Source of the DNA: an uncultured Planctomycetota bacterium
Lineage (GTDB): Bacteria > Planctomycetota > Uabimicrobiia > Uabimicrobiales > JABWCH01
Direction of reading: 5' to 3'
Length of the DNA: 64,000 nucleotides
NCBI GenBank assembly: GCA_964585305.1
Contig: CAZPDM010000013.1
Location: forward strand, 1-64,000
In this document: positions 40,304 to 64,000 of the stretch, piece after piece
Position numbering within the stretch: the stretch's first letter is position 1
Layout: the number at the start of each line of letters is the position of its first letter
Translations under genes and position numbers: made by a program
Notes under the pieces: generated by a model
The model's database searches: none
Told to the model about the DNA's origin: nothing
The model's input: only the letters and a program-made list of their open reading frames with translations

Positions 40304-40388
40304 AAAATTTAGATAATTCGCTATTGAGTCTTCTAGTGATTGATAAGCGCGAATTTTTTATCAAAAATTGGATATTAGGAAAAATTTT

Positions 40389-41300
40389 ATGAGAAATTAT
40401 CTTACTGGAATTCAAGTAGTAAATTGCACATCCTTAGAAGATGCCCTAAAAATAATGGCACAACCTACTCCACCAACTCCTTTAGCAGGTGGAACGGATA
40501 TTATGGTCAATCTAAATTTTAAAAAATTATCCGATGGTATTTATCTAAATTTACACAGTATTCCTGAACTTAAGAAAAATATTCGTATTACAAATAATGA
40601 AATTATTCTTTCAGCATTGACTACTTATACAGATGTAATCTATCATTCTTTTTTTCAAAATAAATATATTATTTTACCACAGGCTGCTGCTTCAGTTGGT
40701 TCAATGGGAATCCAAACCCGCGGAACTTGGGCTGGGAATATTATGAATGCTTCCCCTGCCGCGGATGGAGTTCCTGCATTGATGGTATATGATGCCCAGA
40801 TAGTTTTGATTTCTCAAAAGGGAGAAAGAATTATTCCTCTTTGCGAATTTTACCAGGGATATAAAAAAATGCAAAGGCTTCCAGATGAGTTAATCAAAGA
40901 AATCCGAATTCCTATTGTTGAGAATACAGGTTTTCAATATTTTCGCAAAGTTGGCGAACGTAAAGCACAAGCAATTGCAAAAGTAACATTAGCGGCAAGA
41001 ATTGTATTAGATCAAGAAGGTCGCGTTCAAAATAGCAGATTTATTTTCGGCAGTGTAATGCCATATAGTTATAGAATGTTAAATTTAGAAAAAATATTAG
41101 CCAATCGTTCTATTCACACAGAATTAGTTAGACAAGCAGTAGATGTTGTAGCTTACGATTTAAAACCTATCACCGATATTCGTTCAACAGCACATTATCG
41201 CCTTCGTGTAGCACAAAATCTTGTAGAAGAATTTTTGAATCAGACTTTGGAAAAATATAAATTTAGTACAGCAGAAACCCGAAGGATTCATTCTGTTTAG
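40389..41300 (+). CDS. FAD-binding medium subunit of a xanthine dehydrogenase / CO dehydrogenase-family enzyme (CoxM/XdhB-like)
   Basis: AGGTDIMV FAD-binding motif, CO-dehydrogenase flavoprotein-like C-terminal region. ATG at 40389 with an AGGAAAA RBS. Confidence 0.7.
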   Translation: MRNYLTGIQVVNCTSLEDALKIMAQPTPPTPLAGGTDIMVNLNFKKLSDGIYLNLHSIPELKKNIRITNNEIILSALTTYTDVIYHSFFQNKYIILPQAAASVGSMGIQTRGTWAGNIMNASPAADGVPALMVYDAQIVLISQKGERIIPLCEFYQGYKKMQRLPDELIKEIRIPIVENTGFQYFRKVGERKAQAIAKVTLAARIVLDQEGRVQNSRFIFGSVMPYSYRMLNLEKILANRSIHTELVRQAVDVVAYDLKPITDIRSTAHYRLRVAQNLVEEFLNQTLEKYKFSTAETRRIHSV

Positions 41301-41409
41301 TCAAGAGTTAAAGACTTCGGAATTTTCTTGCCGAAATTCTAATAAATTTGCGCTGCTTGTTAATCAAACAGCGCAAATTTATTGGTCTATCAATAAATAG
41401 GAGACTGCT

Positions 41410-42624
41410 ATGCAGCATATCTTTTCTAGATATATTCTTTTGTATATTCTTATTATTTGCAATATAGTAGGTTGCAGTTACTTTAATGTTATAGAACGAA
41501 GGAATGATGCTATCAATCCAGCAACTCCTCCTGAAGAGCTAATGAAACTTGCGAAAGATCGCGATATGTCTGTTCGCATTAAAGTAGCACAAAATGATAA
41601 TGCTACAGGTGATATTTTAGCTGTATTAGCAGTGGATGAAGACGAATATGTTCGTGAAGCAACAGCCAGCCATCCTAATATAAATACAGAATCCTTAGCT
41701 TTGATGGCGGCGGCTTCAGATATTACTCCAGAAATAAAATTGGCGATTGCTAGTAATCCTAATACGGATCGAAAAACTTTAGAAAAATTAGCAGAAGAAG
41801 CTGATCCTGAAATTAGAACAAAAGTAGCAGCCCATAATAATATTTCTTTAGAACTTTTAACAAAATTGGCTGAAGATGGTGAACCTTCTGTACGTGAACA
41901 AGTAGCATATCATGTTGATGTAACTCCAGAAATATTAGCAAAATTATCAGAAGATAGTAGTATTTGGGTTCGTACAGCTGTGGCAAAAAATCCTAAAGCA
42001 ACATTGCTTACTTTACAAAAATTATCTCAAGATCCAGATATTGGAATTCGAAGAGCTATTTTATATGCAAAACGTGAATATGTAAAAAGAGAAGACGCAT
42101 CAGGAAAAGATTTAGCTTTATTAGTAAATGATTCCGATGATGAAATTCGAATTTCTATTGCACGACATTCTAATACGCCAGAAAATATATTAGCTATTTT
42201 AGCTAATGATAGCAGTCCTTTTGTGCGGGAATCAATTGCTGCAAATCCACGCACTCCTTTAGAATACCTAGAAAAATTAACATTAGATCGTAATTCTAGT
42301 GTTCGTAGTCAAGCCTTAGCAAATCCCAATATTTCACCCAAGGCTACAAAAGATTATAAATTAGAAGGTGTTGACTATCGTTATGGATTAGCTGCTAATC
42401 CTAACACAATACCCCAAATATTATCCGAACTCGTTTTTGATTATCAAAAAAAAGTAAGATTGGCTGTTGCTAAGAATCCTAATACTCCTAGAGCAGCACT
42501 TGCACAATTAGCATTAGATTCTGAAAATGAAATTCGAGCTGCTGCTATGGCAAATCCAAATATTCCTAGTCTAGAGCGTATTCAAGAAGAAGCAAAACAA
42601 TTTCGAGTATCACAAGGAAAATAG
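41410..42624 (+). CDS. Lipoprotein made of HEAT/LRV-type (leucine-rich repeat variant) repeats
   Basis: Lipobox IVGC. At least 12 repeats of the type VRxxVAxNPNTPxExL. Confidence 0.55.
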   Translation: MQHIFSRYILLYILIICNIVGCSYFNVIERRNDAINPATPPEELMKLAKDRDMSVRIKVAQNDNATGDILAVLAVDEDEYVREATASHPNINTESLALMAAASDITPEIKLAIASNPNTDRKTLEKLAEEADPEIRTKVAAHNNISLELLTKLAEDGEPSVREQVAYHVDVTPEILAKLSEDSSIWVRTAVAKNPKATLLTLQKLSQDPDIGIRRAILYAKREYVKREDASGKDLALLVNDSDDEIRISIARHSNTPENILAILANDSSPFVRESIAANPRTPLEYLEKLTLDRNSSVRSQALANPNISPKATKDYKLEGVDYRYGLAANPNTIPQILSELVFDYQKKVRLAVAKNPNTPRAALAQLALDSENEIRAAAMANPNIPSLERIQEEAKQFRVSQGK

Positions 42625-42651: not shown

Positions 42652-43746
42652 ATGAGAGGATATGTAAGTTTAGTATTTTTTCTTGGTATATATTTTTTTA
42701 TATCAAGCAAGCTCATTTTAGGCGATACTATTTTTTTTCAAAATGGAACAATGCGTTCGAATTTAACAGTAAAACAAGATCAATATGATAAAATTATTTA
42801 TGATACGGAAAATGTTCTCAATATTACCATTTCAAATCATATTGTTACAAGAATTGAATATTCAGATGCTCCAGGCGTTTATATCGATGGTCAAAATGCT
42901 TTACTCAGAGCAGATTATTCTGCTGCAACAAAAGCAATGGCGGATGCTATTGAAATTGCTAAAAAGCCTCCCTTGATAAGAGATTGGATTAAACATTATG
43001 CTTTATTTTATCAAGCTCGTGCATATCATGGATGGGCAGAACGCATACGCGATAATTCTAAATTTCAACAAGCAATTGAATATTATCAAAAAACATTGGA
43101 ATCCGATGAAAAAGGCCATTTTGTTTTGGAATGCTACTGGCAAAAAGCTAATATTTATATTAAACTTAAACAATATGACCAAGCTACAACAGAACTAAAA
43201 AAACTTAGCAATATTACACAAAATTTAGATTCCAAGGATTTATGGCAATTTCGTATTGTTTTTTTGCAGGGGCATCTTGCTAAGGCAAAAGGAAATTTTG
43301 ACGATGCAATAGAACAATATACAGAAGCTAGAAAAATTGCTATTGCACAAAAAAGAAGTTATGATATGCAGGAAGCCATTTTAGCTATTGGCGAAGTTTA
43401 TATTATTCAAAAAGATTTTTCTAAAGCCGAAAATTATTTTAGTAAACTCATTCAAGAATACCCTGGCCAAAAAGAAATAGAAGCAGGAATAAAAAATGGC
43501 TTAGCATGGTGTTCTTTTCATCAAAAAAATTATGATAAAGCTCGCACATTGGCCTTGGACGTATTTTTAAAATATCCACAAGTTGTTCAACAACAACCAA
43601 TGGCTTTATATATTTTGGCAAGATGTTATGAAAAAATCTCTAAGTCTGCCCCAAGCACAGATTCTCCTAGCCAAATTTATTATGATTGGCTGAAAACTTC
43701 TTACCCCGATAGCGAATGGGCTAAAAAAATTGGCATAGAAGATTAA
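42652..43746 (+). CDS. TPR-repeat protein with signal peptide
   Basis: Multiple 34-aa TPR-like units (W/LG/Y/A/F/A/P pattern, e.g. AIEYYQKTLESDEK..., AIEQYTEARKIA...). Confidence 0.55.
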   Translation: MRGYVSLVFFLGIYFFISSKLILGDTIFFQNGTMRSNLTVKQDQYDKIIYDTENVLNITISNHIVTRIEYSDAPGVYIDGQNALLRADYSAATKAMADAIEIAKKPPLIRDWIKHYALFYQARAYHGWAERIRDNSKFQQAIEYYQKTLESDEKGHFVLECYWQKANIYIKLKQYDQATTELKKLSNITQNLDSKDLWQFRIVFLQGHLAKAKGNFDDAIEQYTEARKIAIAQKRSYDMQEAILAIGEVYIIQKDFSKAENYFSKLIQEYPGQKEIEAGIKNGLAWCSFHQKNYDKARTLALDVFLKYPQVVQQQPMALYILARCYEKISKSAPSTDSPSQIYYDWLKTSYPDSEWAKKIGIED

Positions 43747-52657: not shown

Positions 52658-52733
52658 TCCCCGGTAGCTCAACAGGCAGAGCGCGTGGCTGTTAACCACT
52701 AGGTTATAGGTTCAAGTCCTTTCCGGGGAGCCA
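52658..52733 (+). tRNA. tRNA-Asn (anticodon GTT), CCA encoded
   Basis: Manual cloverleaf: 7-bp acceptor stem TCCCCGG/CCGGGGA, D-arm GCTC..GAGC, anticodon loop CTGTTAA, T-loop TTCAAGT, discriminator G, CCA. Confidence 0.85.
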
Positions 52734-52740
52734 TCTATTT

Positions 52741-52813
52741 TCCCCGGTAGCTCAACAGGCAGAGCGCGTGGCTGTTAACCACTAGGTTATAGGTTCAAGT
52801 CCTTTCCGGGGAG
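52741..52813 (+). tRNA. tRNA-Asn (anticodon GTT), second identical copy, 3' CCA not encoded (CTA follows the discriminator)
   Basis: Body sequence identical to the first copy, 7 nt downstream of it. Confidence 0.85.
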
Positions 52814-52827
52814 CTAGAAAAAAATAT

Positions 52828-52872
52828 AGACAGCACTTCATCATTTTCGGATGACGGACTGTCTTTTTTTTT
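52828..52872 (+). terminator. Rho-independent terminator after the tRNA-Asn pair
   Basis: GACAGC-ACTTCATC-ATTTTCG-GATGA-CGGACTGTC stem-loop followed by a 9-nt T-run. Confidence 0.7.
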
Positions 52873-52939
52873 GTTTTAGTTCTAAAATTTTTAGGGTTTT
52901 TTAGTTTTTAGAAATTTTTTTATATGAAAAGGCAAAAAG

Positions 52940-54475
52940 ATGAAAATTATTGTTATTCCTGTAGAGGAAGATAAAGGTTTAGAAAGCAAAGTATCATGCT
53001 GTTGCAATAATGAAAAATATTATTTAATTATTCATGCAGATGAAAAAGGCATTTCAAGTGTAGAAAGTCTAAAAGCAAATGATAAAGCATGTAGCAAATG
53101 GTATTGTAAATTAGATGAAGTACTTAAAAATGCTGGTGCAGATGTATTGCTTCTACCTAAAATAGGCAAAAAGAAATGCAACTATTTTAAAAGTGCTAAT
53201 ATTCAGGTTGCAATTGCTGCTGGAACTACTGCTCATGAAATTTTGGAATCTTATTTGAAGGGCAATTCTCATGCTCCCGATATTTATGAATCTTGCCCAT
53301 TTTCTCACGAAGGTATGTCAACTATTGCCGCTCATGCTGGTGGTATGGATGCTGTTACTGGAAGTGTGGTAACTCCTATTTACCAAACTTCAACATTTGC
53401 TTTTGAAAATTCTTTGCAAGGTGCAAATCGTTTTGCTGGAAAAGAATCTGGCTATATTTATACCAGAATGGGCAACCCTACTGTTAGAGCACTTGAAGAC
53501 ACTGTTTCAGCTATGGAAGGCGGCTGGGGTGGTTTAGCAACTGCTTCAGGTATGGCTGCTGTTGCCACAGTTTTTGTGGCTTTTTTGGATAAGAACTCTC
53601 ATATTGTTGGAACTGACTCTGTTTATGGGCCATCGCGCAGTATTATTGAAAGAGATTTTTCCAAATTTGGAGTAGAGTTTTCTTTTGTAGATACCTCTAA
53701 TTTGGATGAAATACGCAAAGCAATGCGTCCAAATACAAAGATTCTTTATATTGAAACTCCAGCAAATCCTACAATGAAGTTGGCAGATATTGCTGCTTGT
53801 GCTGAAATTGCACATCAACACAAAGCTGTTTTAATTGTAGATAATACTTTTATGAGTCCTTATTTACAAAGACCTTTTGAAATGGGTGCAGATGTCATAG
53901 TTCATAGTATGACCAAATTTTTAAACGGACATGCTGATGTTGTCGCTGGAATGATCGTTGCTAAGACACAGGATCTTTACAAGCAAATATATAAAACCCT
54001 CATTTACTGGGGTGGTACCATGGATCCTCATCAAGCATATTTGGTATTGCGAGGTATTAAAACACTTCCTTTGCGTGTAGAAAAAGCTCAAGAAAACGCT
54101 AAAAAGCTTGCCGAATATTTGGAAAAGCATCCTAAAGTTGAATCAATTAAATATCCAGGGCTTGCCAGTTTTACACAAAGTGAATTAGTCAAAAAACAAA
54201 TGAAAGGTACTGGATCTTTGATTTGTTTCGAAGTTAAAGGTGGTATTGAAGCAGGAAGAAGATTGATTGATTCCGTACATGTATGCGCACTTGCTGTTTC
54301 TTTAGGTGGCGTAGAAAGTCTTATCCAACATCCAGCCTCGATGACACATGCTTCCATGTCTAAAGAAAATCGAGAAAAAGCAGGCATTACTGACGGTCTT
54401 ATAAGACTTGCAGTAGGCTGCGAAGAATATGATGATTTGCGTACAGATCTTGAACATGCTTTATCTAAAGCATAA
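52940..54475 (+). CDS. Methionine gamma-lyase / cystathionine gamma-synthase-family PLP enzyme with an N-terminal roughly 120-aa NifX/NifB-like (dinitrogenase FeMo-cofactor family) domain
   Basis: C-terminal roughly 390 aa: AAHAGG, PIYQTSTFAFEN, YTRMGNPT, Schiff-base Lys in SMTKFLNGHADVVAG. The N-terminal 125 aa are stop-free and read MKIIVIPVEED...YYLIIHADEKG...AGADVLLLPKIGKKKCNYFKSANIQV, a pattern like NifX/NifB-C/NifY single-domain proteins (compare 62205..62561). Confidence 0.7.
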   Translation: MKIIVIPVEEDKGLESKVSCCCNNEKYYLIIHADEKGISSVESLKANDKACSKWYCKLDEVLKNAGADVLLLPKIGKKKCNYFKSANIQVAIAAGTTAHEILESYLKGNSHAPDIYESCPFSHEGMSTIAAHAGGMDAVTGSVVTPIYQTSTFAFENSLQGANRFAGKESGYIYTRMGNPTVRALEDTVSAMEGGWGGLATASGMAAVATVFVAFLDKNSHIVGTDSVYGPSRSIIERDFSKFGVEFSFVDTSNLDEIRKAMRPNTKILYIETPANPTMKLADIAACAEIAHQHKAVLIVDNTFMSPYLQRPFEMGADVIVHSMTKFLNGHADVVAGMIVAKTQDLYKQIYKTLIYWGGTMDPHQAYLVLRGIKTLPLRVEKAQENAKKLAEYLEKHPKVESIKYPGLASFTQSELVKKQMKGTGSLICFEVKGGIEAGRRLIDSVHVCALAVSLGGVESLIQHPASMTHASMSKENREKAGITDGLIRLAVGCEEYDDLRTDLEHALSKA

Positions 54476-54683
54476 TTTAATAGAACTATGATTCAGTTAT
54501 TGTATTTTTCAAATGCTTTCGTTACTAACTTTTGATGTTAGTGTGAAAGCATTTTTTTTATGAAGTATTTTTTTCTTGACTTTTATGAATTATTATTTAT
54601 TATAATGAATATATATTCATTTTATATAAACAATATTCGTTATTTACATAATTATTTTATCTATCTAAAGATAGGATATTATA

Positions 54684-55286
54684 ATGCCTAAATTTTCTAA
54701 AAAAGTTAGAGAAATTGTTACGGAAAATATGCGAAAGATTATTCTCGAAAAAAGCAAAGAAATTATTATTCAAGATGGTTTAGAATCCATGACAATGGAA
54801 AAATTGGCTTGTGAAGCAGAGATTTCTATAGGCAGTATTTATAATTATTTTCGGAATAAAGAAGAAATCTGTATTGGTATAATGGAAAACGAATTTATGA
54901 GGCTGTTAAATAATGTTCAAGAGATAGCAAATATGAAATTACCTCCAGTAGAAAGACTATATAAACTGACTGTTTTTATGTTTGAGAATTTTTCTAAAGC
55001 CCGACGATTGCACGAAATTATCATGCACCATCTTCCTATTCCTAGAGAAAAAATTAAAGAAGGTCATAGGCAATTAGTCAATTATATTTCCAAGATTATA
55101 CAAGAAGGTATAGATGAAAAAATATTTGCTCCTGTAGAAGTGTACTTTGCAGTATCAGCATTTTTAGGAATTCTAAGAGAATTACAATTTGATCCGGGTG
55201 ATATGTTTAAAAATATATCTCCTAAAAAACAAGCAAAACGTGTATTAGAATTTTATCTTTCAGGAATAAAATATAAGGAATCATAA
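54684..55286 (+). CDS. TetR-family transcriptional regulator
   Basis: N-terminal HTH (MTMEKLACEAEISIGSIYNYFRNKEE), about 200 aa, directly upstream of the efflux pump genes. Confidence 0.75.
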   Translation: MPKFSKKVREIVTENMRKIILEKSKEIIIQDGLESMTMEKLACEAEISIGSIYNYFRNKEEICIGIMENEFMRLLNNVQEIANMKLPPVERLYKLTVFMFENFSKARRLHEIIMHHLPIPREKIKEGHRQLVNYISKIIQEGIDEKIFAPVEVYFAVSAFLGILRELQFDPGDMFKNISPKKQAKRVLEFYLSGIKYKES

Positions 55287-55288
55287 TA

Positions 55289-56662
55289 ATGATGAAAAAA
55301 ATTATGAAGTCTATATGGTTTTCTTTTTTTCTTTTTTTTATAGGTATTGTTGCTACAGTTATCTTAATAAAGACTGGGCCAAGTCCTCTTAAAACTCCAA
55401 TTTTAGAACAAGAACAAGTAGTCTCTGCGATAAAAGTTTCTCCTATAAATGTTATTCCCTGGATAATAGGGTATGGCGAAGCACAACCTGCAAGAACGTG
55501 GAAAGCCGTTTCCCAAGTAGGTGGAAAAATATCGTGGAAGTCTCCCAAATTGAAAAATGGAGAATTTTTTGAAGCAGGAGAATTGCTTCTATCTATAGAT
55601 GATAGTGAAATTAAATTAAAAATTCTATCCGCAGAAGCAACGATAAAGAAGATTCAAGCTAAAATGGAAGAATTGACAACGACTAAAACGAATATGATGT
55701 CTCAATTAGCAATTCTCAAAAGTATTCTAGAATTTCAGGAAAAAGAATTTAAACGCCAGCAATCACTATTGACTTCTAAGAGCGTATCTGTTGTAACGGT
55801 TGAAAATCAGGAAATAGCTGTATTACAACAACGTAATACTATAGATGGACTCGAGTCAAATTTAAGATTGCTTCCTTCTCAAATATCCTATCAGGAAGCA
55901 GAATTAGCTATAGCTCAAGCAGAGTTGGCACAAAGAAAATTAGAGTTAAATTATGCGAAAATATATGCACCATTTGATTGTAGAGTTGATAGTGCATCAG
56001 TAGAAGAACAACAATATGTTTCAATTGGACAAAATATGGTTACTGTTGATTCTATAGACGAAATGGAAATATTTCTGCAATTCAGAATGGAACAAATTGG
56101 ATTACTTTTTGCTCAACCTCCTAATAATGGAAATGGTATAGAGAAAATTTCTGAGGAAAAAAGAAAAGCAACTCCTCCGAATTGGAAAATTAGCGTTAAC
56201 ATTAGTGGATTGGCTAATTCATATTCTTGGCCAGGTCAATTTCGGCGTATTGCATCAGGCATAGATACTACAACACGTATGATAAGCATGATTGTTGGTG
56301 TTCAAGAACCCTATCGGCGGAATAATAAAATACTTGGTCCTCCTCTTGCTAAAGGTTCTTTTTGCACTGTTAAAATTGAAGGAAAAGAACAAGAAAATTT
56401 ACTAGTTCTTCCTCGCTATGCTATTCACGATGATAAGATATATATTGCAAATAAAGATTCCAGGCTGGAAATTGTTCCTATAAAAATAAATTATCATTTA
56501 GGACAATATGCGATTGTTGGGAAAGGATTAAATATTGGAGATTTAGTTATTCTTAATGATCTAGTTCCAGCAGTTTCAGGAATGAAACTTCAGCTTGTTA
56601 TGGATGAAAATTTTTATCAACAAGCAAATACTGAGCTTAGCGGAAAAGAGGTAGTAAAATGA
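55289..56662 (+). CDS. Efflux periplasmic adaptor (HlyD/membrane-fusion protein family)
   Basis: N-terminal TM anchor, coiled-coil hairpin region, beta-barrel-like C-terminus. Overlaps the RND gene start by 4 nt. Confidence 0.7.
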   Translation: MMKKIMKSIWFSFFLFFIGIVATVILIKTGPSPLKTPILEQEQVVSAIKVSPINVIPWIIGYGEAQPARTWKAVSQVGGKISWKSPKLKNGEFFEAGELLLSIDDSEIKLKILSAEATIKKIQAKMEELTTTKTNMMSQLAILKSILEFQEKEFKRQQSLLTSKSVSVVTVENQEIAVLQQRNTIDGLESNLRLLPSQISYQEAELAIAQAELAQRKLELNYAKIYAPFDCRVDSASVEEQQYVSIGQNMVTVDSIDEMEIFLQFRMEQIGLLFAQPPNNGNGIEKISEEKRKATPPNWKISVNISGLANSYSWPGQFRRIASGIDTTTRMISMIVGVQEPYRRNNKILGPPLAKGSFCTVKIEGKEQENLLVLPRYAIHDDKIYIANKDSRLEIVPIKINYHLGQYAIVGKGLNIGDLVILNDLVPAVSGMKLQLVMDENFYQQANTELSGKEVVK

Positions 56663-59600
56663 TCAGATATTTTATACGACATCCTACAGCCTCTAATTTG
56701 TTGATGATATTTTTTTTGATTTTAGGATTGTTAGTTTTAAGCCATATCAGACGAGCAGGTATGCCAGATTTTACTACAAATGCTTTACAAATTAGTGCTA
56801 ATTATCCTGGAGCTACTGCTGAAGAAATAGAAGAAGCCATTGCTGTTCCAATTGAAGACGCTCTTGGAAAAGTTAATAATATAAAAAAAATTACTACAAC
56901 TGCGATGGAAGGCATGGTTTCTATAACTGTTGAGTTGCTTGATAATGCTGACTATCAGGAAGTATACAATGATGTGAAGACTGAAGTTGATGCAATTACC
57001 TCTTTTCCTAATCAATTAGAAAAGCTCATTATTAAACCGCAAAATCGCTTGGATCAAATTATTAGTTTGGCAATTTATGGTGATTTATCAATAAATGATC
57101 TTAAGAGCTATTGCGAAGATTTTAAAGATAAATTGATGGAATTGGGAGGAGGCATTCAGGTTGAAGTTAGCGGATTTGCTCAACGTGAATTTCGAATAGA
57201 ATTATTACCCATAGCATTGCATACTTATAAACTTAGCATCAATACTATTGCTCAAATTATAATTAGTCAAAATATAGATTTGCCTTCCGGGACATTAGAA
57301 ACTGGAGAGCAAGATATTAAACTTCGTTTTAGCGATCGTCGCAAAACGATTCAAGATGTTTCTTCAATACGTGTTTTATCTAGCGCGTCTGGAGCTGAAA
57401 TATTATTGGGAGATATTGCAAAAATTAGTGAATGCTTTGAAGCAAACGAAAATAAAGTGTTGTTTAATGGCTATCGTGCTGGAATTTTAAGTGTTTCCAA
57501 AAGCAAAAGTGCTGACAGTTTGAAAATTTATGCTAAAGTAATGGCTTTATTAGAAGAAGAAAAGACAAAAGTTCCTTCTGGAATAAAATTTGCCATTACA
57601 AGAGATCGCGCTAGTGATATACAGGCCAGACTTAATATGGTATATTTAAATGCCTTTCAGGGATTTTTTTTAGTTTTTGCTGCCTTATGGTTATTTTTGA
57701 ATTTGAAACTTTCAATATGGGTATCTATGGGGTTGCCAGTATCATTTTTAGGCGGGCTTTTTATTATGCACATTTTTGGCATATCCCTTAATATGATTTC
57801 TACCTTTGCTTTGATCATTGCACTTGGTCTTATTATGGACGATGCTATTGTAATCGCTGAAAATATTGCGGTGCATCTTAAAAAAGGCGAATCCGCTTTT
57901 GATGCTGCTGTAAATGGTGTAAAAGAAATTGGAAATGGAGTTTGTTCAAGTTTTCTTACTACAATTTGTGTATTTGCTCCATTGATGTTTTTAAGTGGGC
58001 AAATAGGAAAAATTCTTTGCGTTATTCCTCTTACACTAACTATTATTTTATCAGTGAGTCTTTTCGAAGCCTTTTTTATTTTACCTAATCATTTATCTCA
58101 TTCTTTTAAAAATGGGATGCCCAAGGAAAATATTTATCGTAAAAAAATTGATCAATTTATTTCTTTTTTATCTTTAAATGTTGTAGAAAAATTGTGTAGA
58201 AATTTGGTTTCATATCGTTATTTATTTCTCACTAGTATACTAGTAATATTTATTTTTTCAGTTGGAATGTTTCCTGCGGGGTACTTAAAATTTTTAGTAT
58301 TTCCTAGTGTGGACAGCGATACGGCAGTATGCAAAGTTATGCTTGCGCCAGGAAGTTCGATGAAACAAAGTGAACGTGCTTCAGAGCAATTATGTAAAGC
58401 TGCGGAGCGAATGAATCAAATTCTAACTAAACGACAGCCGCAAGAAAAACAATTGGTAAAATTTGTCTCTGTCAATTTTAGTGCAAATTCTGATTACAGA
58501 GATAGTGGGGCACATCTTTTTACTGTTTATGTTGATTTGCTGGCTGGAGATGAAAGAAAAAGCACTTTAGATGAAATCCTTCATGTTTGGCGACAGGAAG
58601 CTGGAGATATTCCGGGAGCGTTGAGTATAAAATTTGAAGATATGGCAATGGGTCCTGGAGGAAAAGCCATTGAATTAAGATTGCACGGAAAAGATTTATC
58701 TGTTTTAAAACTAGCAGCAAGTGCTTTACGTAGCAAACTTTCTTCGTATTCTGGAGTTTTTGATGTAACGGATAGTATGACGTTAGGAAAACCTGAAATT
58801 GTAATGTCTTTAAAACCTGGTGCATTAAAACTTGGGTTTACTGCTACAAATATAGCTCAACAATTAAGAGCCGCATACCAAGGCGAAAAGGCTGATGAAT
58901 TACAAATTGGAAGCGATAATTATGAATTTAATGTTAAGATGGCTTATAATATTTCAGAGAATTTATATAACTTTGATAATTTTCAATTAACAACTTCAAC
59001 AGGTATTAAAGTCCCCTTGCTGAATGTAGTTAATTTACGATATGCTCGCGGACTTTCCAGTATCAATCGATATAATAGTAAACGTACAGTAACAGTTTCT
59101 GCAAATGTCAACGATGCTATCGCAAATGCGCAAGATGTTTGTAACGATTTAACAAAAAATTATTTTCCTGACTTTGTAAAAAAATATCCTAGTATTACCT
59201 ATTCTTTTGGCGGGCAAGTTGAAGCAGGAAGTGAAACCGGTAGCTCTATGGGACAGGCTTTTCTCATAGGAATTATTGGTATTTTTATTATTCTGTCGCT
59301 ACAATTTGGAACTTTTATTGAACCGTTAATTGTGATGGCTACTATTCCATTGTCGATAATTGGAATTGTTTGGGGACATATTTTATTTGGCAGATCCTTT
59401 GATATGCAAGGCGTAATTGGAATGGTTTCCCTTGCAGGGATTGTGGTGAACAATTCAATTTTGTTAATGGATTTTATTAAAATGCGTGAGGCAGAAGGAA
59501 TGATTCCTCAAGAGGCAGCATGTAAAGCCTCCAGCGATAGATTCCGTCCAATTATGTTGACTAGCTTGACTACGATTGCAGGCTTATTGCCAATTCTTTC

Positions 59601-59745
59601 GGAAAAGAGCTTGCAAGCACAAATGGTAATTCCTCTTGCTTTAACTATAGTATGTGGGTTGCTCACATCAACTTTGTTAGTGCTATTTGTTACTCCCTCA
59701 TTATATCTAGTAGTACAGGATTTTCGTTCATTTATGAAAAAATGA
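56659..59745 (+). CDS. RND-superfamily efflux permease (AcrB/CzcA-like)
   Basis: 1028 aa, 12-TM topology with two large periplasmic loops. Conserved TM4-region motif (ALGLIMDDAIVIAENI). Confidence 0.85.
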   Translation: MIRYFIRHPTASNLLMIFFLILGLLVLSHIRRAGMPDFTTNALQISANYPGATAEEIEEAIAVPIEDALGKVNNIKKITTTAMEGMVSITVELLDNADYQEVYNDVKTEVDAITSFPNQLEKLIIKPQNRLDQIISLAIYGDLSINDLKSYCEDFKDKLMELGGGIQVEVSGFAQREFRIELLPIALHTYKLSINTIAQIIISQNIDLPSGTLETGEQDIKLRFSDRRKTIQDVSSIRVLSSASGAEILLGDIAKISECFEANENKVLFNGYRAGILSVSKSKSADSLKIYAKVMALLEEEKTKVPSGIKFAITRDRASDIQARLNMVYLNAFQGFFLVFAALWLFLNLKLSIWVSMGLPVSFLGGLFIMHIFGISLNMISTFALIIALGLIMDDAIVIAENIAVHLKKGESAFDAAVNGVKEIGNGVCSSFLTTICVFAPLMFLSGQIGKILCVIPLTLTIILSVSLFEAFFILPNHLSHSFKNGMPKENIYRKKIDQFISFLSLNVVEKLCRNLVSYRYLFLTSILVIFIFSVGMFPAGYLKFLVFPSVDSDTAVCKVMLAPGSSMKQSERASEQLCKAAERMNQILTKRQPQEKQLVKFVSVNFSANSDYRDSGAHLFTVYVDLLAGDERKSTLDEILHVWRQEAGDIPGALSIKFEDMAMGPGGKAIELRLHGKDLSVLKLAASALRSKLSSYSGVFDVTDSMTLGKPEIVMSLKPGALKLGFTATNIAQQLRAAYQGEKADELQIGSDNYEFNVKMAYNISENLYNFDNFQLTTSTGIKVPLLNVVNLRYARGLSSINRYNSKRTVTVSANVNDAIANAQDVCNDLTKNYFPDFVKKYPSITYSFGGQVEAGSETGSSMGQAFLIGIIGIFIILSLQFGTFIEPLIVMATIPLSIIGIVWGHILFGRSFDMQGVIGMVSLAGIVVNNSILLMDFIKMREAEGMIPQEAACKASSDRFRPIMLTSLTTIAGLLPILSEKSLQAQMVIPLALTIVCGLLTSTLLVLFVTPSLYLVVQDFRSFMKK

Positions 59746-59806: not shown

Positions 59807-59827
59807 AAATTATTGAATTTTTTAGAA

Positions 59828-61243
59828 ATGGAACCAGAAATAATGGTGTGTAAATTAAAAAAAGAACCAAATACTCAAAATAAATCGAAAAGTCATCTAA
59901 GTACAGCTAACGCTAATGCTATTTTACAAAGTATTTCTGATGGTGTGTTTACTGTTGATACCAATTGGAAAGTAACTTCTTTCAATCGAGCTGCTGAAGA
60001 AATTACAGGAATTTCACCAAGCGAAGCTATAGGAAAATATTGTTTTGAAGTCTTTCGATCTAGTATGTGTGAAACAGAATGTGCATTGCGTAAGACATTA
60101 GAAACAGGAAATCCTATTGTTAATAAATCATGTTTTATTATTGACGCTCAAGGAAACCATATTCCAATTAGTGTATCTACAGCTGTACTTAAAGATGATG
60201 AAGGAAATATAATTGGAGGAGCAGAGACATTTCGTGATCTAAGCGATGTAGAAGACTTACGTAAAAAGGTAGAAGGTATTTTTAAAATTGGAGATATTAT
60301 TAGTCGTAGTCATACTATGAAAAAGGTATCTGTTATTTTACCTTCGATTGCAGCTAGTGATAGTACTGTTCTTATTCAAGGGGAAACTGGAACTGGAAAA
60401 GAACTTTTGGCTCGCGCAATTCATTATTCAGGAAGACGTAAGGAAAAACCTTTTATTGCCATAAATTGTGGAGCATTACCAGATACTCTTTTAGAATCCG
60501 AGCTATTTGGTTATAAAGCAGGAGCATTTACTGGAGCAAACAAAGATAAGCCTGGACGTTTTGCCTTAGCAGAAGGCGGAACATTATTTCTGGATGAAAT
60601 TGGAGAAATCAGCCAAATGCTTCAAGTAAAGTTGCTTCGAGTTCTGCAAGAAAAAAATTATGATCCACTTGGTGCAACTCAATCTGCAAAAGCTGATGTA
60701 AGGATTGTTGCCGCGACTCATAAAGATATTTATTCTTTAGTTAAACAAGGCCTTTTTAGAGAAGACTTGTTTTATCGTATTCACGTAATTAGAATTGATC
60801 TTCCTCCACTAAGAGAAAGAAAAGAAGATATTCCTTTATTACTTGATCATTTTATTGCAAAATTTAATAAAATCCAACGTAAAAATATTGCAGGGATAAC
60901 TCAAGAATCTCTTGCTTTGCTTATGTCTTACAATTGGCCTGGTAATATTAGAGAATTAGAAAATTTTATTGAACGGGCATTTATTCTTTGTTCTGAGGGA
61001 ATGATTGAACCAAAACATTTGTCAGAAAATTTTAGTTACTCGGAGACTAAAGTTCTAGTCTCACCATTTCATATTTCCGCTATTAAGCAAACGATTGAAG
61101 CAGAGGCAATTTTAGAAGCTTTAAAAAGAAATAATTTCAATCGTTTGGCGGCTGCAAAAGAATTGGGAATTCATAAAAGTACGTTTTTTCGTAAAATTAA
61201 ATCATTAGGAATATCTCTTCCTTCTAAACAAGAAGAAAACTAA
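59828..61243 (+). CDS. Sigma-54-dependent transcriptional activator (PAS sensor + AAA+ sigma-54 interaction + Fis-type HTH; no receiver domain)
   Basis: PAS-like N-terminus. Walker A GETGTGKE, GAFTGA motif (GYKAGAFTGA), Walker B LFLDEIGE. C-terminal HTH (NRLAAAKELGIHKSTFFRKIK). The start is uncertain (TTG at 59813 or ATG at 59828). Confidence 0.85.
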   Translation: MEPEIMVCKLKKEPNTQNKSKSHLSTANANAILQSISDGVFTVDTNWKVTSFNRAAEEITGISPSEAIGKYCFEVFRSSMCETECALRKTLETGNPIVNKSCFIIDAQGNHIPISVSTAVLKDDEGNIIGGAETFRDLSDVEDLRKKVEGIFKIGDIISRSHTMKKVSVILPSIAASDSTVLIQGETGTGKELLARAIHYSGRRKEKPFIAINCGALPDTLLESELFGYKAGAFTGANKDKPGRFALAEGGTLFLDEIGEISQMLQVKLLRVLQEKNYDPLGATQSAKADVRIVAATHKDIYSLVKQGLFREDLFYRIHVIRIDLPPLRERKEDIPLLLDHFIAKFNKIQRKNIAGITQESLALLMSYNWPGNIRELENFIERAFILCSEGMIEPKHLSENFSYSETKVLVSPFHISAIKQTIEAEAILEALKRNNFNRLAAAKELGIHKSTFFRKIKSLGISLPSKQEEN

Positions 61244-61245
61244 AG

Positions 61246-61272
61246 GACTAAGTTACACTTAGTCTTTTTTTT
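61246..61272 (+). terminator. Rho-independent terminator after the sigma-54 activator gene (GACTAAG-ttaca-CTTAGTC + T8)
   Basis: 7-bp stem followed by 8 T. Confidence 0.75.
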
Positions 61273-61362
61273 GCTACTTAAATAAAAAAATGAGTCGCAT
61301 TTTTGCGACTTATATAATTTGAATTACTTGATAAAATCAGCTTTCTACCGATTTATTTTATA

Positions 61363-61378
61363 TGGCATACATTTTGCT
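61363..61378 (+). promoter_or_regulatory. Sigma-54 (-24/-12) promoter: TGGCAT-ACATT-TTGCT
   Basis: The GG and GC dinucleotides are separated by exactly 10 nt, matching the TGGCAC-N5-TTGCW consensus. It lies about 105 nt upstream of the first NifX-like gene and directly downstream of a sigma-54 activator. Confidence 0.6.
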
Positions 61379-61484
61379 AGTTAAATGCTAATTAAAATAG
61401 AAGTGCGAGAATGTACCATCTTTTTAGAAGTGGTATTCGAAAAAATAATTTTATAACCGTTATTTTCGAGATAGGGGGAATTCT

Positions 61485-61859
61485 GTGAAAGTCGCCATTA
61501 CAATTTGGAATGAGCATATTTCTCCTGTTTTTGATGTATGTAAAAAAATGCTTATTTTAGATATTCAGGATAAGAAGATTATTTCGCAAAGAGAAGAAAA
61601 TTTTATTGATGACGATCCTTTAAAAAAAATATCTCAATTAAGTTATTTTTCTATTCATACATTGATTTGTGGGGCAATATCAAAAAACTTAGCCGATGAA
61701 CTTTCTTCTTTAAATATCAAAATTATCCCTTTTATCTCTGGAAAAATAGAAAATGTTATTTTCGCTTATATTTCCGACCAATTATTAGAAAGTTCTTTTC
61801 TTATGCCAGGATGCAGGAAGAGATGCCAAAGGCGAAAAAGAAATTGTTGTAAAAAATAA
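61485..61859 (+). CDS. NifX/NifB-like (dinitrogenase FeMo-cofactor family fold) small protein with Cys/Arg-rich C-terminal tail
   Basis: MKVAITIWNEHISPVFDVCKKMLILDI...LICGAISKNLADELSSLNIKIIP fits the NifX-like single-domain pattern. C-terminal PGCRKRCQRRKRNCCKK. Confidence 0.5.
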   Translation: MKVAITIWNEHISPVFDVCKKMLILDIQDKKIISQREENFIDDDPLKKISQLSYFSIHTLICGAISKNLADELSSLNIKIIPFISGKIENVIFAYISDQLLESSFLMPGCRKRCQRRKRNCCKK

Positions 61860-61883
61860 AAAAAATTTTTGAAAGGAAATGTT

Positions 61884-62174
61884 ATGCCAGGAAAAAATGG
61901 AATGGGTCCTAATGGATTAGGGCCAATGACAGGACGTGCTGCTGGATATTGTGCAAGAAATCATAATTTGGGGCAATTCGGATTTCAAGGGAGAAGGCGA
62001 AATTGTTTTTGTCAAAATAATATTCCAGGCTGGAGATGGGCAAATCAAAATATTCCACCAAATGTTGAATACGAAAAAAATTATTTAACAATACAAGCTC
62101 AGGAAATAGAAAAACAGTTATCTCAAATTAAAAATCGTCTATCTGAAATAGAATCTGCTGAAAAGCAAAAATAA
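61884..62174 (+). CDS. DUF5320-like small protein (Gly/Pro-rich N-terminus, C-terminal coiled-coil)
   Basis: MPGKNGMGPNGLGPMTGRAAGYCAR resembles the DUF5320 N-terminal signature (MPrgDGTGPmGmGPmTGRgaGyC). The ATG at 61884 has an AAAGGA RBS. Confidence 0.5.
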   Translation: MPGKNGMGPNGLGPMTGRAAGYCARNHNLGQFGFQGRRRNCFCQNNIPGWRWANQNIPPNVEYEKNYLTIQAQEIEKQLSQIKNRLSEIESAEKQK

Positions 62175-62204
62175 TAAAGACTACAAAGACAAAGGAGTCT
62201 AAGC

Positions 62205-62561
62205 GTGAAAATTGCGTTTACTACATCTGGAATAACTTTGAAAGATTCTTTAGATCCTCGTTTTGGACGTGCTCCTAAATTTTTGATTTATGATTTGGAA
62301 AATAATGTTTTTGATATAATAGATAATCAAAAAAATTTAAATGCAGCACAGGGAGCTGGTATACAATCTGCGGAAACAATAGTCAAGGCAGGTGTTAATG
62401 CTCTGGTTACTGGACATTGCGGACCAAAAGCATTTCGTGTTCTTTCTACAGCAGGAATTACTATTTATAACACAGATGCTACTACCATTGATCTTGCTCT
62501 AGATCAATTCCGATCTGGCAAACTTAATCAAGTTACATCTGCTAATGCTGAAGGACACTAG
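62205..62561 (+). CDS. NifX/NifB-like (dinitrogenase FeMo-cofactor family) domain protein
   Basis: MKIAFTTSGITLKDSLDPRFGRAPKFLIYDLEN...NALVTGHCGPKAFRVLSTAGITIYN is a canonical NifX/NafY-like pattern. GTG start with an AAAGGAG RBS. Confidence 0.75.
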   Translation: MKIAFTTSGITLKDSLDPRFGRAPKFLIYDLENNVFDIIDNQKNLNAAQGAGIQSAETIVKAGVNALVTGHCGPKAFRVLSTAGITIYNTDATTIDLALDQFRSGKLNQVTSANAEGH

Positions 62562-62563
62562 GA

Positions 62564-63403
62564 ATGCTTATTTCCGTAGCTTCAGGCAAAGGCGGCACTG
62601 GAAAAACAACAGTATCTGTTAATTTAGCTAGGATACTTGAAAATGTACAACTCCTAGATTGTGATGTCGAGGAACCAAATGCAAACTTATTTCTTAAAGG
62701 AAATATAACTAAACAGGAAACTGTTACAGTTTCTATTCCTGAAATTGATAAAAATATTTGTAATTTTTGCGGAGAATGTAGCAAATTTTGCCAATATAAT
62801 GCAATAGTTTCTCTTCAGCAAATGATTCTTATATTTACTGAGCTTTGTCATAGTTGTGGGGGGTGTTTAAAAGCTTGCCCTAATAAAGCCATTCGAGAAG
62901 TTGAAAAACGTATTGGGGTGGTTAAAACTTTAGAATCAAATAATATTACTCTGGTGCAAGGTAGTATTGATGTGGGAGTAGCAATGGTAACACCTGTTAT
63001 TAAAGCGGTTAAAAAACTTGCCCAAAATAAAATAGTAATACTTGATGCGCCACCAGGAACTTCTTGCCCTGTAATTACAACAATAGAAGGTTCAGACTTT
63101 GTAGTATTAGTTACCGAACCTACTCCCTTCGGAATGAATGATCTTAAATTGGCTGTAGAAATGGTAAAGAAAATAGATATTCCTTTTGGCATAGTCATCA
63201 ATCGCTTGGGAATTGGTGATGATAGAATCCATGTATTTTGTAAACAGCAGAATATTCCCATTCTTTTAGAAATTCCTGACGATCGTAGAATTGCTCAGGC
63301 TTATTCCAGGGGAGAAATTATAGTAGATTCTTTACCAGAATATAGAAATTATTTTGAAAACCTTTGGAAAAAAATTGTAGAATTACAAAAGAAGTCCATC
63401 TAA
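62564..63403 (+). CDS. MinD/ParA-superfamily P-loop ATPase with an inserted double [4Fe-4S] ferredoxin-like domain
   Basis: Deviant Walker A SGKGGTGKTT. Two CxxCxxCxxxCP motifs (CNFCGECSKFCQ; CHSCGGCLKACP). Confidence 0.75.
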   Translation: MLISVASGKGGTGKTTVSVNLARILENVQLLDCDVEEPNANLFLKGNITKQETVTVSIPEIDKNICNFCGECSKFCQYNAIVSLQQMILIFTELCHSCGGCLKACPNKAIREVEKRIGVVKTLESNNITLVQGSIDVGVAMVTPVIKAVKKLAQNKIVILDAPPGTSCPVITTIEGSDFVVLVTEPTPFGMNDLKLAVEMVKKIDIPFGIVINRLGIGDDRIHVFCKQQNIPILLEIPDDRRIAQAYSRGEIIVDSLPEYRNYFENLWKKIVELQKKSI

Positions 63404-63428
63404 AGTTAATGAATAAAGGGAATATAAA

Positions 63429-63680
63429 ATGCCAATTTATGAATATGAATGTAGTTCATGTGGTTTTAAATTTGAACGACAACAGAGTATGACAGATGCT
63501 CCAATTAGAGAATGCCCAGAATGCAAAGGTGAAGTTAAAAAAATTGTGAGTGGCGGTTCTGGTTTTATTTTCAAAAATTCTGGACAAAAAAATGGGCATA
63601 GTTGTTCTTTAGAATCGACAGGAAGAACTTGTTGCGGCAGAGAAAATCGCTGCGACAGTTCACCGTGTGGAAAAAACTAA
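63429..63680 (+). CDS. FmdB-family zinc-ribbon protein with Cys-rich C-terminus
   Basis: MPIYEYECSSCGFKFE...CPECKG, and additional Cys residues at the C-terminus. Confidence 0.65.
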   Translation: MPIYEYECSSCGFKFERQQSMTDAPIRECPECKGEVKKIVSGGSGFIFKNSGQKNGHSCSLESTGRTCCGRENRCDSSPCGKN

Positions 63681-63755
63681 ATTTTGTCAAAGATGGTCTA
63701 ATAGAAATAGATCAGCATTTTTATTTGATCAAAAGATAGAAAAAAAGGTAGAATT

Positions 63756-64000
63756 ATGAATGAATTGCGAACACAAATAAAAGAATTTGTGATTATTAGT
63801 GGAAAAGGAGGAACTGGTAAAACTAGTTTAACTGCGGCATTTGCTGCTCTTGCAAATCATCCTGTTATTGTAGATTGTGATGTGGATGCTGCAGATTTGC
63901 ATCTTATACTTTTGCCTCAAATTAAAAAATTGTATGAATTTCGCAGTGGACATGAAGCAACAATTCGTCAGGAAGATTGTGTTAAATGTGGAGATTGTTT
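63756..64000 (+). CDS. Second MinD/ParA-type ATPase with ferredoxin-like insertion (3'-truncated by the window edge)
   Basis: ISGKGGTGKTS deviant Walker A. CVKCGDC at the window edge begins a 4Fe-4S motif. Confidence 0.7.
   Translation, partial: MNELRTQIKEFVIISGKGGTGKTSLTAAFAALANHPVIVDCDVDAADLHLILLPQIKKLYEFRSGHEATIRQEDCVKCGDC

Follow-up and report, generated by a model that had tools for sequence, protein, structure and literature searches.

Why should an enzyme of sulfur amino acid metabolism carry, at its N-terminus, a domain from a family known for holding metal-sulfur clusters? The question is raised by a gene at 52940..54475 on the forward strand of a 64,000-nucleotide (nt) stretch of contig CAZPDM010000013.1; this whole stretch is hereafter called the window. 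The gene starts with ATG and, as assigned from the open reading frame (ORF) and Pfam, encodes a 511-residue protein composed of a PF02579 domain, a linker, and a PF01053 pyridoxal 5'-phosphate (PLP)-dependent lyase domain. An identical protein, P0001, is present in the public protein collection. The initial annotation had described a stop-free, NifX/NifB-like N-terminal extension in front of a lyase of the methionine gamma-lyase (MGL) family, and its coordinates, strand, start codon, and 511 codons agree with ours. The translation contains the N-terminal features named there, i.e., MKIIVIPV, LIIHADEKG, AGADVLLLPKIG, and IQVAIAAG...EILESYL, and the PF02579 profile matches residues 26-106 with 34.6 bits in the whole protein and 38.0 bits in residues 1-125, both of which exceed the gathering score of 26.3. 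We tentatively propose, with slightly less than even confidence, that the fusion protein is a sulfur supplier of the metallocluster network of anaerobes that is built of orange protein (ORP)-, Mrp-, and NifU-type components, and that its tethered domain holds a cluster of the iron-sulfur (Fe-S) type. Both halves belong to known families, and fusions of PF02579 to other partners are precedented by NifB and MrpORP.

The reading frame itself must be considered first, since the fusion could be an artefact in which two genes are merged by a sequencing error or in which the true start is Met126, the Met of MSTIAAHAGG, preceded by a decaying upstream remnant. At the base composition of the window (G+C, ~33%), the probability that 125 codons are free of stops by chance is 5e-5, and neither a frameshift nor a stop codon is present where a separate, frameshifted upstream gene had been considered. 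A homologue search of 5.8 billion clustered proteins (sources, NCBI, ENA, JGI, and Logan) found the fusion architecture in 17 clusters at 90% identity, with 54-100% identity, all of 509-519 residues and with both domains. All 17 of the closest clusters (17/17) carry the extension; from the 18th match on, the relatives are approximately 395 residues long and lack it. The approximately 100 relatives that start near the internal Met, together with the split arrangement of one lineage (L091, described below), are what an artefact would have in its favor, but the same in-frame architecture and length recur in 17 independent clusters from the NCBI, ENA, JGI, and Logan assemblies, the N-terminal domain is folded confidently in the prediction, and the linker contains invariant residues. 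We therefore give an artefact a very small probability; the starts of the distant homologues near the internal Met reflect a fusion that arose in one clade and not a miscalled start.

The fusion is rare. An exhaustive HMMER scan with the N-domain profile against 1.84 billion representatives at 50% identity gave only one match below 1e-30, namely P0010 (E = 7e-45), which represents the single 50%-identity cluster containing the fusions. The exhaustive scan was needed because a word-index search with the same profile returned 17 stand-alone proteins or fragments and missed the known fusions. At least two fusion lineages are placed in Planctomycetota, i.e., P0016 (UBA2386) and PMZT01000246.1 (a metagenome-assembled genome [MAG] with a GTDB label). 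The two-domain enzyme is genuine, is conserved in one clade that includes Planctomycetota, and is rare. In a distance (neighbor-joining) tree of the PLP domain with 100 bootstraps, the smallest clade holding all 17 fused proteins has 18 leaves, the additional one being the "unfused" protein P0100. Strict monophyly of the fused proteins was rejected (0/100 bootstraps), and P0100 nests among them. At its locus, L091, the lyase gene shares 4 nt at its start with a separate PF02579 gene for a 147-residue protein and is followed closely by a DUF134 gene; the P0100 pair is the split, unfused counterpart of the fusion. A SulP/STAS sulfate-family transporter gene and a universal stress protein gene are located just upstream of this PF02579, lyase, and DUF134 unit (L091:4048-6416). 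Public pipelines label the fusion proteins as methionine-gamma-lyase, and one fusion sequence, PMZT01000246.1, was met in a methioninase screen with the annotation NifX_NifB and was not pursued there (PMC11568061). Our literature search returned no paper naming both Pfam families together and no description of a linkage between such lyases and ORP genes.

The lyase domain comprises residues 128-508 (53321..54463, forward strand) and matches PF01053 with 486 bits (E = 6e-146), covering positions 2-380 of the 381 in the profile. Among solved structures, those of Citrobacter freundii MGL are the best matches (E = 1e-133, 54% identity), and the nearest structures by fold are also MGLs. Conservation was evaluated in 119 sequences, i.e., the 17 fused proteins and 102 unfused relatives. 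Lys326 (53915..53917, forward strand), which aligns with the PLP Schiff-base lysine Lys210 of C. freundii MGL, is invariant in all of them, as are D301, Y229, Y174, R176, S323, T325, S454, and R489, which likewise align with C. freundii MGL. Tyr174 and Arg176 correspond to the Tyr-x-Arg contributed by the partner subunit, and the Arg that binds the carboxylate is also kept. In identity (54%), fold, and general catalytic residues, the domain thus resembles the MGLs of C. freundii and Pseudomonas putida (EC 4.4.1.11); we know of no MGL with an N-terminal PF02579 domain.

On the other hand, the features that define methioninases, i.e., the Tyr-Gly-Cys motif (Cys116 in P. putida and Cys115 in C. 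freundii) and the Lys240-Asp241 pair (PMC11568061), are missing. In the alignment to Y113-G114-C115 of C. freundii, the active-site loop is Tyr229-Gly230-Pro231 (53624..53632, forward strand), so that Pro231 replaces the MGL-specific Cys of true MGLs. This YGP sequence, part of a YGPSR loop, occurs in 17/17 fused proteins and 100/102 unfused relatives, and no YGPS loop was found among solved or characterized enzymes. In the alignment of GLKDITGG (C. freundii) with KTL-IYWGG, the Lys falls on a gap and the Asp is replaced by Ile. The MGL equivalog cutoffs are missed as well (TIGR01328, 472.7 versus 549.7; NF004876, 487.7 versus 666). Without Tyr-Gly-Cys, without the Lys-Asp pair, and with scores below these cutoffs, the protein is therefore named an MGL-like C-S lyase and not a proven methioninase. 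The earlier assignment to the MGL family stands as far as PF01053 and the intact catalytic residues are concerned, and does not extend to the methioninase signature or the cutoffs. Judged from its sequence, this C-terminal part of 385 residues is a catalytically intact MGL-like PLP C-S lyase of a large uncharacterized YGPSR subfamily, and by homology it is expected to cleave a sulfur amino acid, the product being sulfide in the case of cysteine or homocysteine and methanethiol in the case of methionine.

The departures from MGL also bear on a role in sulfur assimilation, in which the PLP domain would be a sulfhydrylase or gamma-synthase that forms homocysteine from O-acyl-homoserine and sulfide, and the PF02579 domain would deliver the sulfide from a Fe-S or thioferrate-like store. 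Among the NCBIfam scores, none of which reaches its cutoff, those for O-succinylhomoserine sulfhydrylase (421 bits) and O-acetylhomoserine/O-acetylserine sulfhydrylase (394 bits) are only moderately under that for MGL (488 bits). After the YGPS loop comes the invariant Arg233, and cystathionine and acyl-homoserine enzymes typically have an Arg near this position. Together with the missing MGL-specific Cys and Lys-Asp pair and the SulP sulfate transporter upstream of the split pair in L091, these scores fit an assimilatory enzyme; however, the closest solved relatives by both sequence and fold are all MGLs with 54% identity, and no homoserine acyltransferase or other methionine biosynthesis gene was seen in any context, the neighbors being of the Fe-S type. 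We consider sulfur assimilation improbable.

The N-terminal domain (residues 1-117; 52940..53290, forward strand) is NifX/orange-protein-like and has the β-β-β-α-β-α-β-α order common to the solved PF02579/IPR003731 members. It is confidently folded in the AlphaFold2 (AF2) model, in which the linker has low confidence. The domain was compared with approximately 210 aligned domains of stand-alone and multidomain relatives. At positions 21 to 23, the relatives have His (140/210), Phe (201/210), and Gly (200/210), and the window protein has Cys21-Cys22-Asn23; Cys20-Cys21-Cys22 (52997..53005, forward strand) thus stands in place of the x-His-Phe of the family's His-Phe-Gly (HFG) motif in this alignment. 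The motif, which follows β1, is not kept in the window protein, and x-F-G is kept in 11/17 fused homologues. P0001 to P0005 all have Cys at position 22, i.e., Cys-containing residues replace HFG in the window protein and its four closest relatives.

A different set of cysteines is conserved throughout the fusions. Over the N-domain and linker, the 17 aligned fusions share invariant I6, S16, A46, W54, C56, G76, A98, C119, and P120, and C51 and P73 are nearly invariant. The β3-α1 loop (53075..53107, forward strand), defined by this alignment and the AF2 secondary structure, contains Cys51 (53090-53092), Trp54, and Cys56 (53105-53107), and the linker (residues 118-127; 53291..53320, forward strand) contains, by the same alignment, the invariant Cys119-Pro120 (53294-53299). 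Cys is found in 16/17 fusions at position 51 and in 17/17 at both positions 56 and 119, which gives three conserved cysteines. Cys119-Pro120 is followed by His or Phe (His in 12/17) and is, by its position in the tail, a candidate counterpart of the tail Cys motif of MrpORP. Among the approximately 210 relatives, Cys is present at the equivalent of C56 in 33 and at that of C119 in 41, and C51 and W54 have practically no counterpart there. Cys67, present in 15/17 fusions and absent from the window protein, was rejected as a fourth ligand, as in the predicted secondary structure it is at the opposite end of helix α1 from C56.

This pattern is relevant to the simplest account of the protein, according to which it is an ordinary catabolic methionine or cysteine lyase with a cargo-free N-domain that serves for docking, oligomerization, or solubility only. 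The label given by public pipelines, the loss of the canonical HFG motif in the window protein, and the faster evolution of the N-domain (31-63% identity to the window protein versus 60-87% for the PLP part) would be in line with such a domain. By contrast, conservation of the three cysteines and Trp54 extends through the 17 clusters even where domain identity falls to 31%, the three-Cys pattern recurs in stand-alone PF02579 proteins from both the split and the adjacent form, and such a role would not account for the repeated linkage to Fe-S-type genes. We regard a purely catabolic enzyme as unlikely.

Where the PF02579 protein stands alone in a split or adjacent form (L091 and L082), it has a loop of C-x5-6-C-H-H and a tail of C-x-G-H followed by a His-rich tail; where it is encoded beside an unfused lyase (L009, L020, and L046), it has HFGHC and a tail C-x-H, which are the CXHFGHCE and CDH motifs of MrpORP. 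The His-rich tails are long in the proteins at L082:9552-10004, L091:7561-8004, L009:9573-9962, and L046:3080-3589, e.g., HDHGHDHGHGHGHRHQHCHQHGHHDHH, and resemble the metal-binding tails of Ni/Zn metallochaperones.

MrpORP (Orp9, DVU2109) of Desulfovibrio consists of an Mrp/NBP35 ATPase and a PF02579 ("Di-Nase") domain and is, like the fusion, a protein in which PF02579 is joined to another component of the same gene network. The three conserved Cys residues of its PF02579 domain were shown to bind a [3Fe-4S] cluster (PMC6345978). The PF02579 domain of the fusion has exactly three conserved Cys residues as well, which would be available for such a cluster. The two proteins differ in that the partner in MrpORP is an ATPase, the PF02579 domain is C-terminal, and the motifs are CXHFGHCE and CDH, whereas the fusion has a PLP lyase, the loop C51-x4-C56, and the tail C119-P; the CXHFGHCE motif occurs in 0/17 fusions. 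The orp cluster that encodes MrpORP includes stand-alone PF02579, DUF5320-type, and MinD/Fer4 genes, as found at 59813-64000 in the window.

Further cargoes on record for the PF02579 fold are NifB-co, FeMo-co, the Mo-Cu-S cluster of orange protein, and the thioferrate or inorganic Fe and S of IssA (PMC6345978, PMC5524996). Orange protein itself (Orp8; PDB 2wfb) is 21% identical and is a stand-alone 12-kDa protein that binds its Mo-Cu-S cluster noncovalently and has no lyase. In NifB, a radical SAM domain with a C-terminal NifX-like domain, a catalytic domain making a sulfur-containing product is joined to PF02579, as in the fusion, and the product cluster NifB-co is assembled or held on the PF02579 domain (PMC5524996). 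The chemistry is not the same, being that of radical SAM in NifB and PLP elimination in the fusion, and the nif gene context of NifB is absent; no nif genes were found among the scanned window ORFs or in the fetched flanks of any fusion locus. Unlike NifX and NafY proper, the fusion is not encoded with nifHDK, nifEN, or nifB in the contexts scanned. The PF02579/IPR003731 domain of IssA from Pyrococcus furiosus binds inorganic Fe and sulfide and can feed [4Fe-4S] assembly, and IssA is linked to growth on sulfide and not to cysteine desulfurase (PMC5524996). In IssA, the domain is followed by a cationic, Gly-rich C-terminal tail, and the protein forms thioferrate nanoparticles, whereas the fused domain has no such tail, and a short linker leads from it to the lyase.

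The closest relatives of the N-domain are themselves fused, i.e., to Mrp/NUBPL ATPases (P0146), CDF transporters (5/5 tested), or DUF134 (P0184), or occur in tandem. The module therefore occurs fused to every partner family of the operons described below. The HMMER scan (P0198, P0208, P0227, P0239, P0278, P0184, and P0146) returned CDF cation-efflux transporters with a C-terminal PF02579 domain, Mrp with two PF02579 domains, and DUF134 (helix-turn-helix) with PF02579; the CDF-PF02579 and DUF134-PF02579 fusions may be uncharacterized architectures in their own right.

Eleven contexts of fused genes were sampled. In L088, a same-strand run encodes DUF134, PF02579, DUF1847, PF02579, DUF5320, two MinD/CbiA ATPases with 4Fe-4S motifs, NifU_N, an Mrp/ParA ATPase, the fusion, and a CDF cation-efflux protein. 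The run in L081 consists of DUF134, DUF1847, NifU_N, ParA, the fusion, and CDF, and that in L082-84 consists of ferritin, PF02579, the fusion, and DUF134. A cysteine desulfurase gene was found in none of the L088, L081, and L082-84 loci. IscS, NifS, and SufS are the usual sulfur donors beside NifU and IscU; like them, the fusion uses PLP and has a sulfur amino acid as its expected substrate, and in L081 and L088 its gene directly follows those of NifU_N and an Mrp-type carrier. It differs from them in belonging to PF01053 and not PF00266, to which there is only a 75-residue partial match (E = 1e-4, versus 6e-146 for PF01053); no desulfurase-type catalytic Cys loop was identified, and it should yield free sulfide where the desulfurases form a persulfide on the enzyme. 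The link to metallocluster handling suggested in the initial annotation is supported by these operons, with NifU_N, Mrp/MinD, PF02579, DUF5320, DUF134, CDF, and ferritin, and by the split form; cluster binding and sulfur hand-off would be further steps that we infer.

The linkage is not restricted to the fused proteins. A contig scan with PLP-domain patterns met no fusion locus and gave 80 loci of unfused relatives of approximately 395 residues from Bacteroidales, Acidobacteriota, Gemmatimonadota, Planctomycetota, Bacillota, Myxococcales, Krumholzibacteriia, and others. The flanking ORFs included PF02579-like genes in 14 of the 80 loci, MinD/Fer4 in 13, Mrp/ParA in 11, DUF134 in 8, and DUF5320 in 6, and an ORP-type ORF was located within 1.5 kb of the lyase in at least 12/80. 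ORP-type ORFs are denser close to the lyase (1.05 per 10 kb at less than 1 kb) than farther away (0.23 per 10 kb at 7-10 kb), the background being an internal distance control and not a genome-wide null. The lyase gene is between PF02579 and MinD within an ORP-like run in L009, between MinD genes and PF02579-Mrp in L046, and after an Mrp-PF02579 fusion in L048 and L068. The idea that the fused clade has its nearest kin among the unfused lyases beside ORP-type genes was rejected (Mann-Whitney p 0.67); as these lyases are scattered over the tree, the linkage is recurrent and not confined to one lineage. Unfused YGPSR-type lyases in or beside ORP-like runs were recorded at L009:8509-12008, L046:1-4534, L048:704-3552, L014:218-2581, and L020:10001-11580, in MAGs of Bacteroidales, Ozemobacteraceae, Acidobacteriota, Bacillota, and Terriglobia.

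From these observations, we infer a possible route for sulfur in the proposed supplier. Elimination at the PLP domain would yield sulfide, with cysteine or homocysteine as substrate, and possibly also methanethiol, with methionine as substrate. The sulfide would be captured with iron on the tethered PF02579 domain, where a Fe-S-type species may be ligated by C51, C56, and C119, much as the three-Cys domain of MrpORP holds its cluster. The cluster or its sulfur could then be passed to a NifU-type scaffold, an Mrp/MinD-type carrier, and ORP partners, the candidates being the proteins whose genes lie next to the fusion gene in relatives and follow it after 7 kb in the window. Tethering, or translational coupling in the split form, would keep a volatile and toxic product near its acceptor. 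Fe-S assembly straight from sulfide is accepted for the SMS and MIS systems (PMC13066941).

Several observations weigh against this route. C51, C56, and C119 do not coincide in position with the CXHFGHCE and CDH motifs of MrpORP, and C119 is at the edge of a low-confidence stretch in the predicted structure. MGL-type lyases free sulfide and form no enzyme persulfide, and directed transfer is thus not intrinsic to their chemistry. The fusion gene is alone among unrelated genes in 7/11 contexts, including all four of the window's subclade, and it is monocistronic in the window; no sigma-54 promoter was found before it, the sole good intergenic site in the window being at 61363. The PF02579 fusions to the DNA-binding DUF134 and to CDF are no less compatible with a role in sensing than with one as a carrier. 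Finally, the cluster on the PF02579 domain of MrpORP was transferred inefficiently to apo-aconitase, and its role was left open (PMC6345978).

Some of these points lead to the main rival of the supplier, a sensor-regulated lyase, in which the PF02579 domain would sense a Fe-S or metal-sulfide species and throttle or activate the lyase so that sulfide output tracks cluster demand. The closest PF02579 relatives are fused to DUF134 (P0184), which is one-component-regulator-like, and to the cytoplasmic end of CDF transporters (5/5 tested), most fusion genes stand alone, as expected of a self-contained regulated enzyme, and the cluster of the MrpORP domain is poorly transferable, with its role left open (PMC6345978). 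However, the position directly after the NifU_N scaffold and the Mrp carrier in L081 and L088 is the expected place of a sulfur donor, the precedents of IssA and NifB are of an assembly or holding site (PMC5524996), and a monomer model with a low-confidence linker allows no inference of an allosteric path. We accordingly hold regulation by sensing to be possible but the less probable role, and retain the tethered supplier as the preferred one.

In the window itself, the candidate partners are found downstream of the fusion gene. A PAS, sigma-54 activator, and HTH_8 regulator, assigned by Pfam and probably belonging to the partner system, is encoded at 59813..61243 (forward strand). It is followed in the intergenic region by a sigma-54 promoter-like site, TGGCATACATTTTGCT (61363..61378, forward strand), with one mismatch to TGGCAC-N5-TTGCW. 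The next genes, all on the forward strand, encode a stand-alone PF02579 protein (61485-61859; 30.5 bits), DUF5320 (61869-62174), a second stand-alone PF02579 protein (62205-62561; 81.1 bits), and a MinD/CbiA ATPase with 2x4Fe-4S motifs (62564-63403), as identified with Pfam, followed by a small Zn_ribbon_8 protein (63429-63680) and a second MinD-type P-loop ORF, which starts near 63756 and is cut at the window end (64000). The two stand-alone PF02579 genes at 61485 and 62205 had been pointed out in the initial annotation, and both are real; they begin 7.0 kb past the end of the fusion gene and 8.5 kb from its start. The same set of PF02579, DUF5320, PF02579, and MinD/Fer4 also lies directly upstream of the fusion in L088, and the ORP-like genes at 61485..63403 are probable partners of the fusion protein. 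This gene set is that of the sigma-54-controlled ORP cluster of Desulfovibrio (PMC6345978). Because the window organism is probably not Desulfovibrio, sulfate reducers do not seem to be the only carriers of the sigma-54-controlled ORP module. The scan of window ORFs gave no gene for a cysteine desulfurase and none of the SUF or ISC type. The PF02579 protein at 61485-61859 has no HFG motif and has a strongly cationic, Cys-rich (Cys/Arg/Lys) tail, PGCRKRCQRRKRNCCKK, which resembles the cationic tail by which IssA is said to bind thioferrate.

The fusion gene is preceded directly by two tandem tRNA-Asn(GTT) genes, 7 nt apart (52658-52814), after which a hairpin and a U9 run are located (52828..52873, forward strand; fold energy, -13.9 kcal/mol; z, -3.6). 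A terminator-like hairpin with a U8 run is located just past its stop codon (54511..54562, forward strand); the 87-nt stretch containing it (54476-54562) has a fold energy of -19.8 kcal/mol and a z of -4.2. As it is bracketed by these two hairpin/U-run elements, the fusion gene is an independent transcription unit. Genes for a TetR regulator, an HlyD-type adaptor, and an AcrB-type RND pump (54684-59745) lie between it and the ORP-like cluster.

Other features of the window are as follows. A FAD_binding_5 molybdopterin-dehydrogenase subunit and an LRV/HEAT-repeat protein are encoded both in the window (40368-42624) and near the P0006 fusion (L087:1-6978), and this pairing hints at residual synteny between the window and the P0006 genome. 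At 10189-18938 (reverse strand), two adjacent paralogous PMT_2 glycosyltransferases (605 and 602 residues), an RsmE-like methyltransferase, and a 1402-residue protein with many WD40 repeats are encoded. The large repeat proteins (WD40; LRV/HEAT, 41410-42624; TPR, 42652-43746) are in keeping with a genome of the Planctomycetota/PVC type. A gingipain-like Peptidase_C25, complete with propeptide, is encoded at 8012-10069, and this 2-kb block, with a G+C content of 0.41 versus ~0.33 elsewhere, may have been acquired horizontally.

The physical joining of a PLP C-S lyase to a domain of a Fe-S-binding type provides a concrete and cheaply testable hypothesis, which is strengthened because lyase relatives in several phyla sit between NifU, Mrp, MinD/Fer4, and orange-protein-like genes. 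More broadly, the YGPSR lyases together with the three-Cys PF02579 module, fused or adjacent, might constitute an unrecognized, desulfurase-independent sulfur-mobilization step for the ORP/Mrp/MinD-Fer4 system, a generalization that we regard as speculative and rather doubtful. The source of sulfur for the large Fe-S and Mo/W-S cofactor complement of strict anaerobes is an open question; to our knowledge, no sulfur donor of the SMS systems has been described, and the ORP complex has had no defined function since its first description. If this broader reading is true, it would add a sulfide route into Fe-S and heterometal-sulfide assembly beside ISC, SUF, NIF, MIS, and SMS. In addition, the methioninase signature is missing from a large group of proteins that carry the annotation methionine gamma-lyase; these probably have another function, which affects the inferences on methanethiol and sulfide that are drawn from metagenomes.

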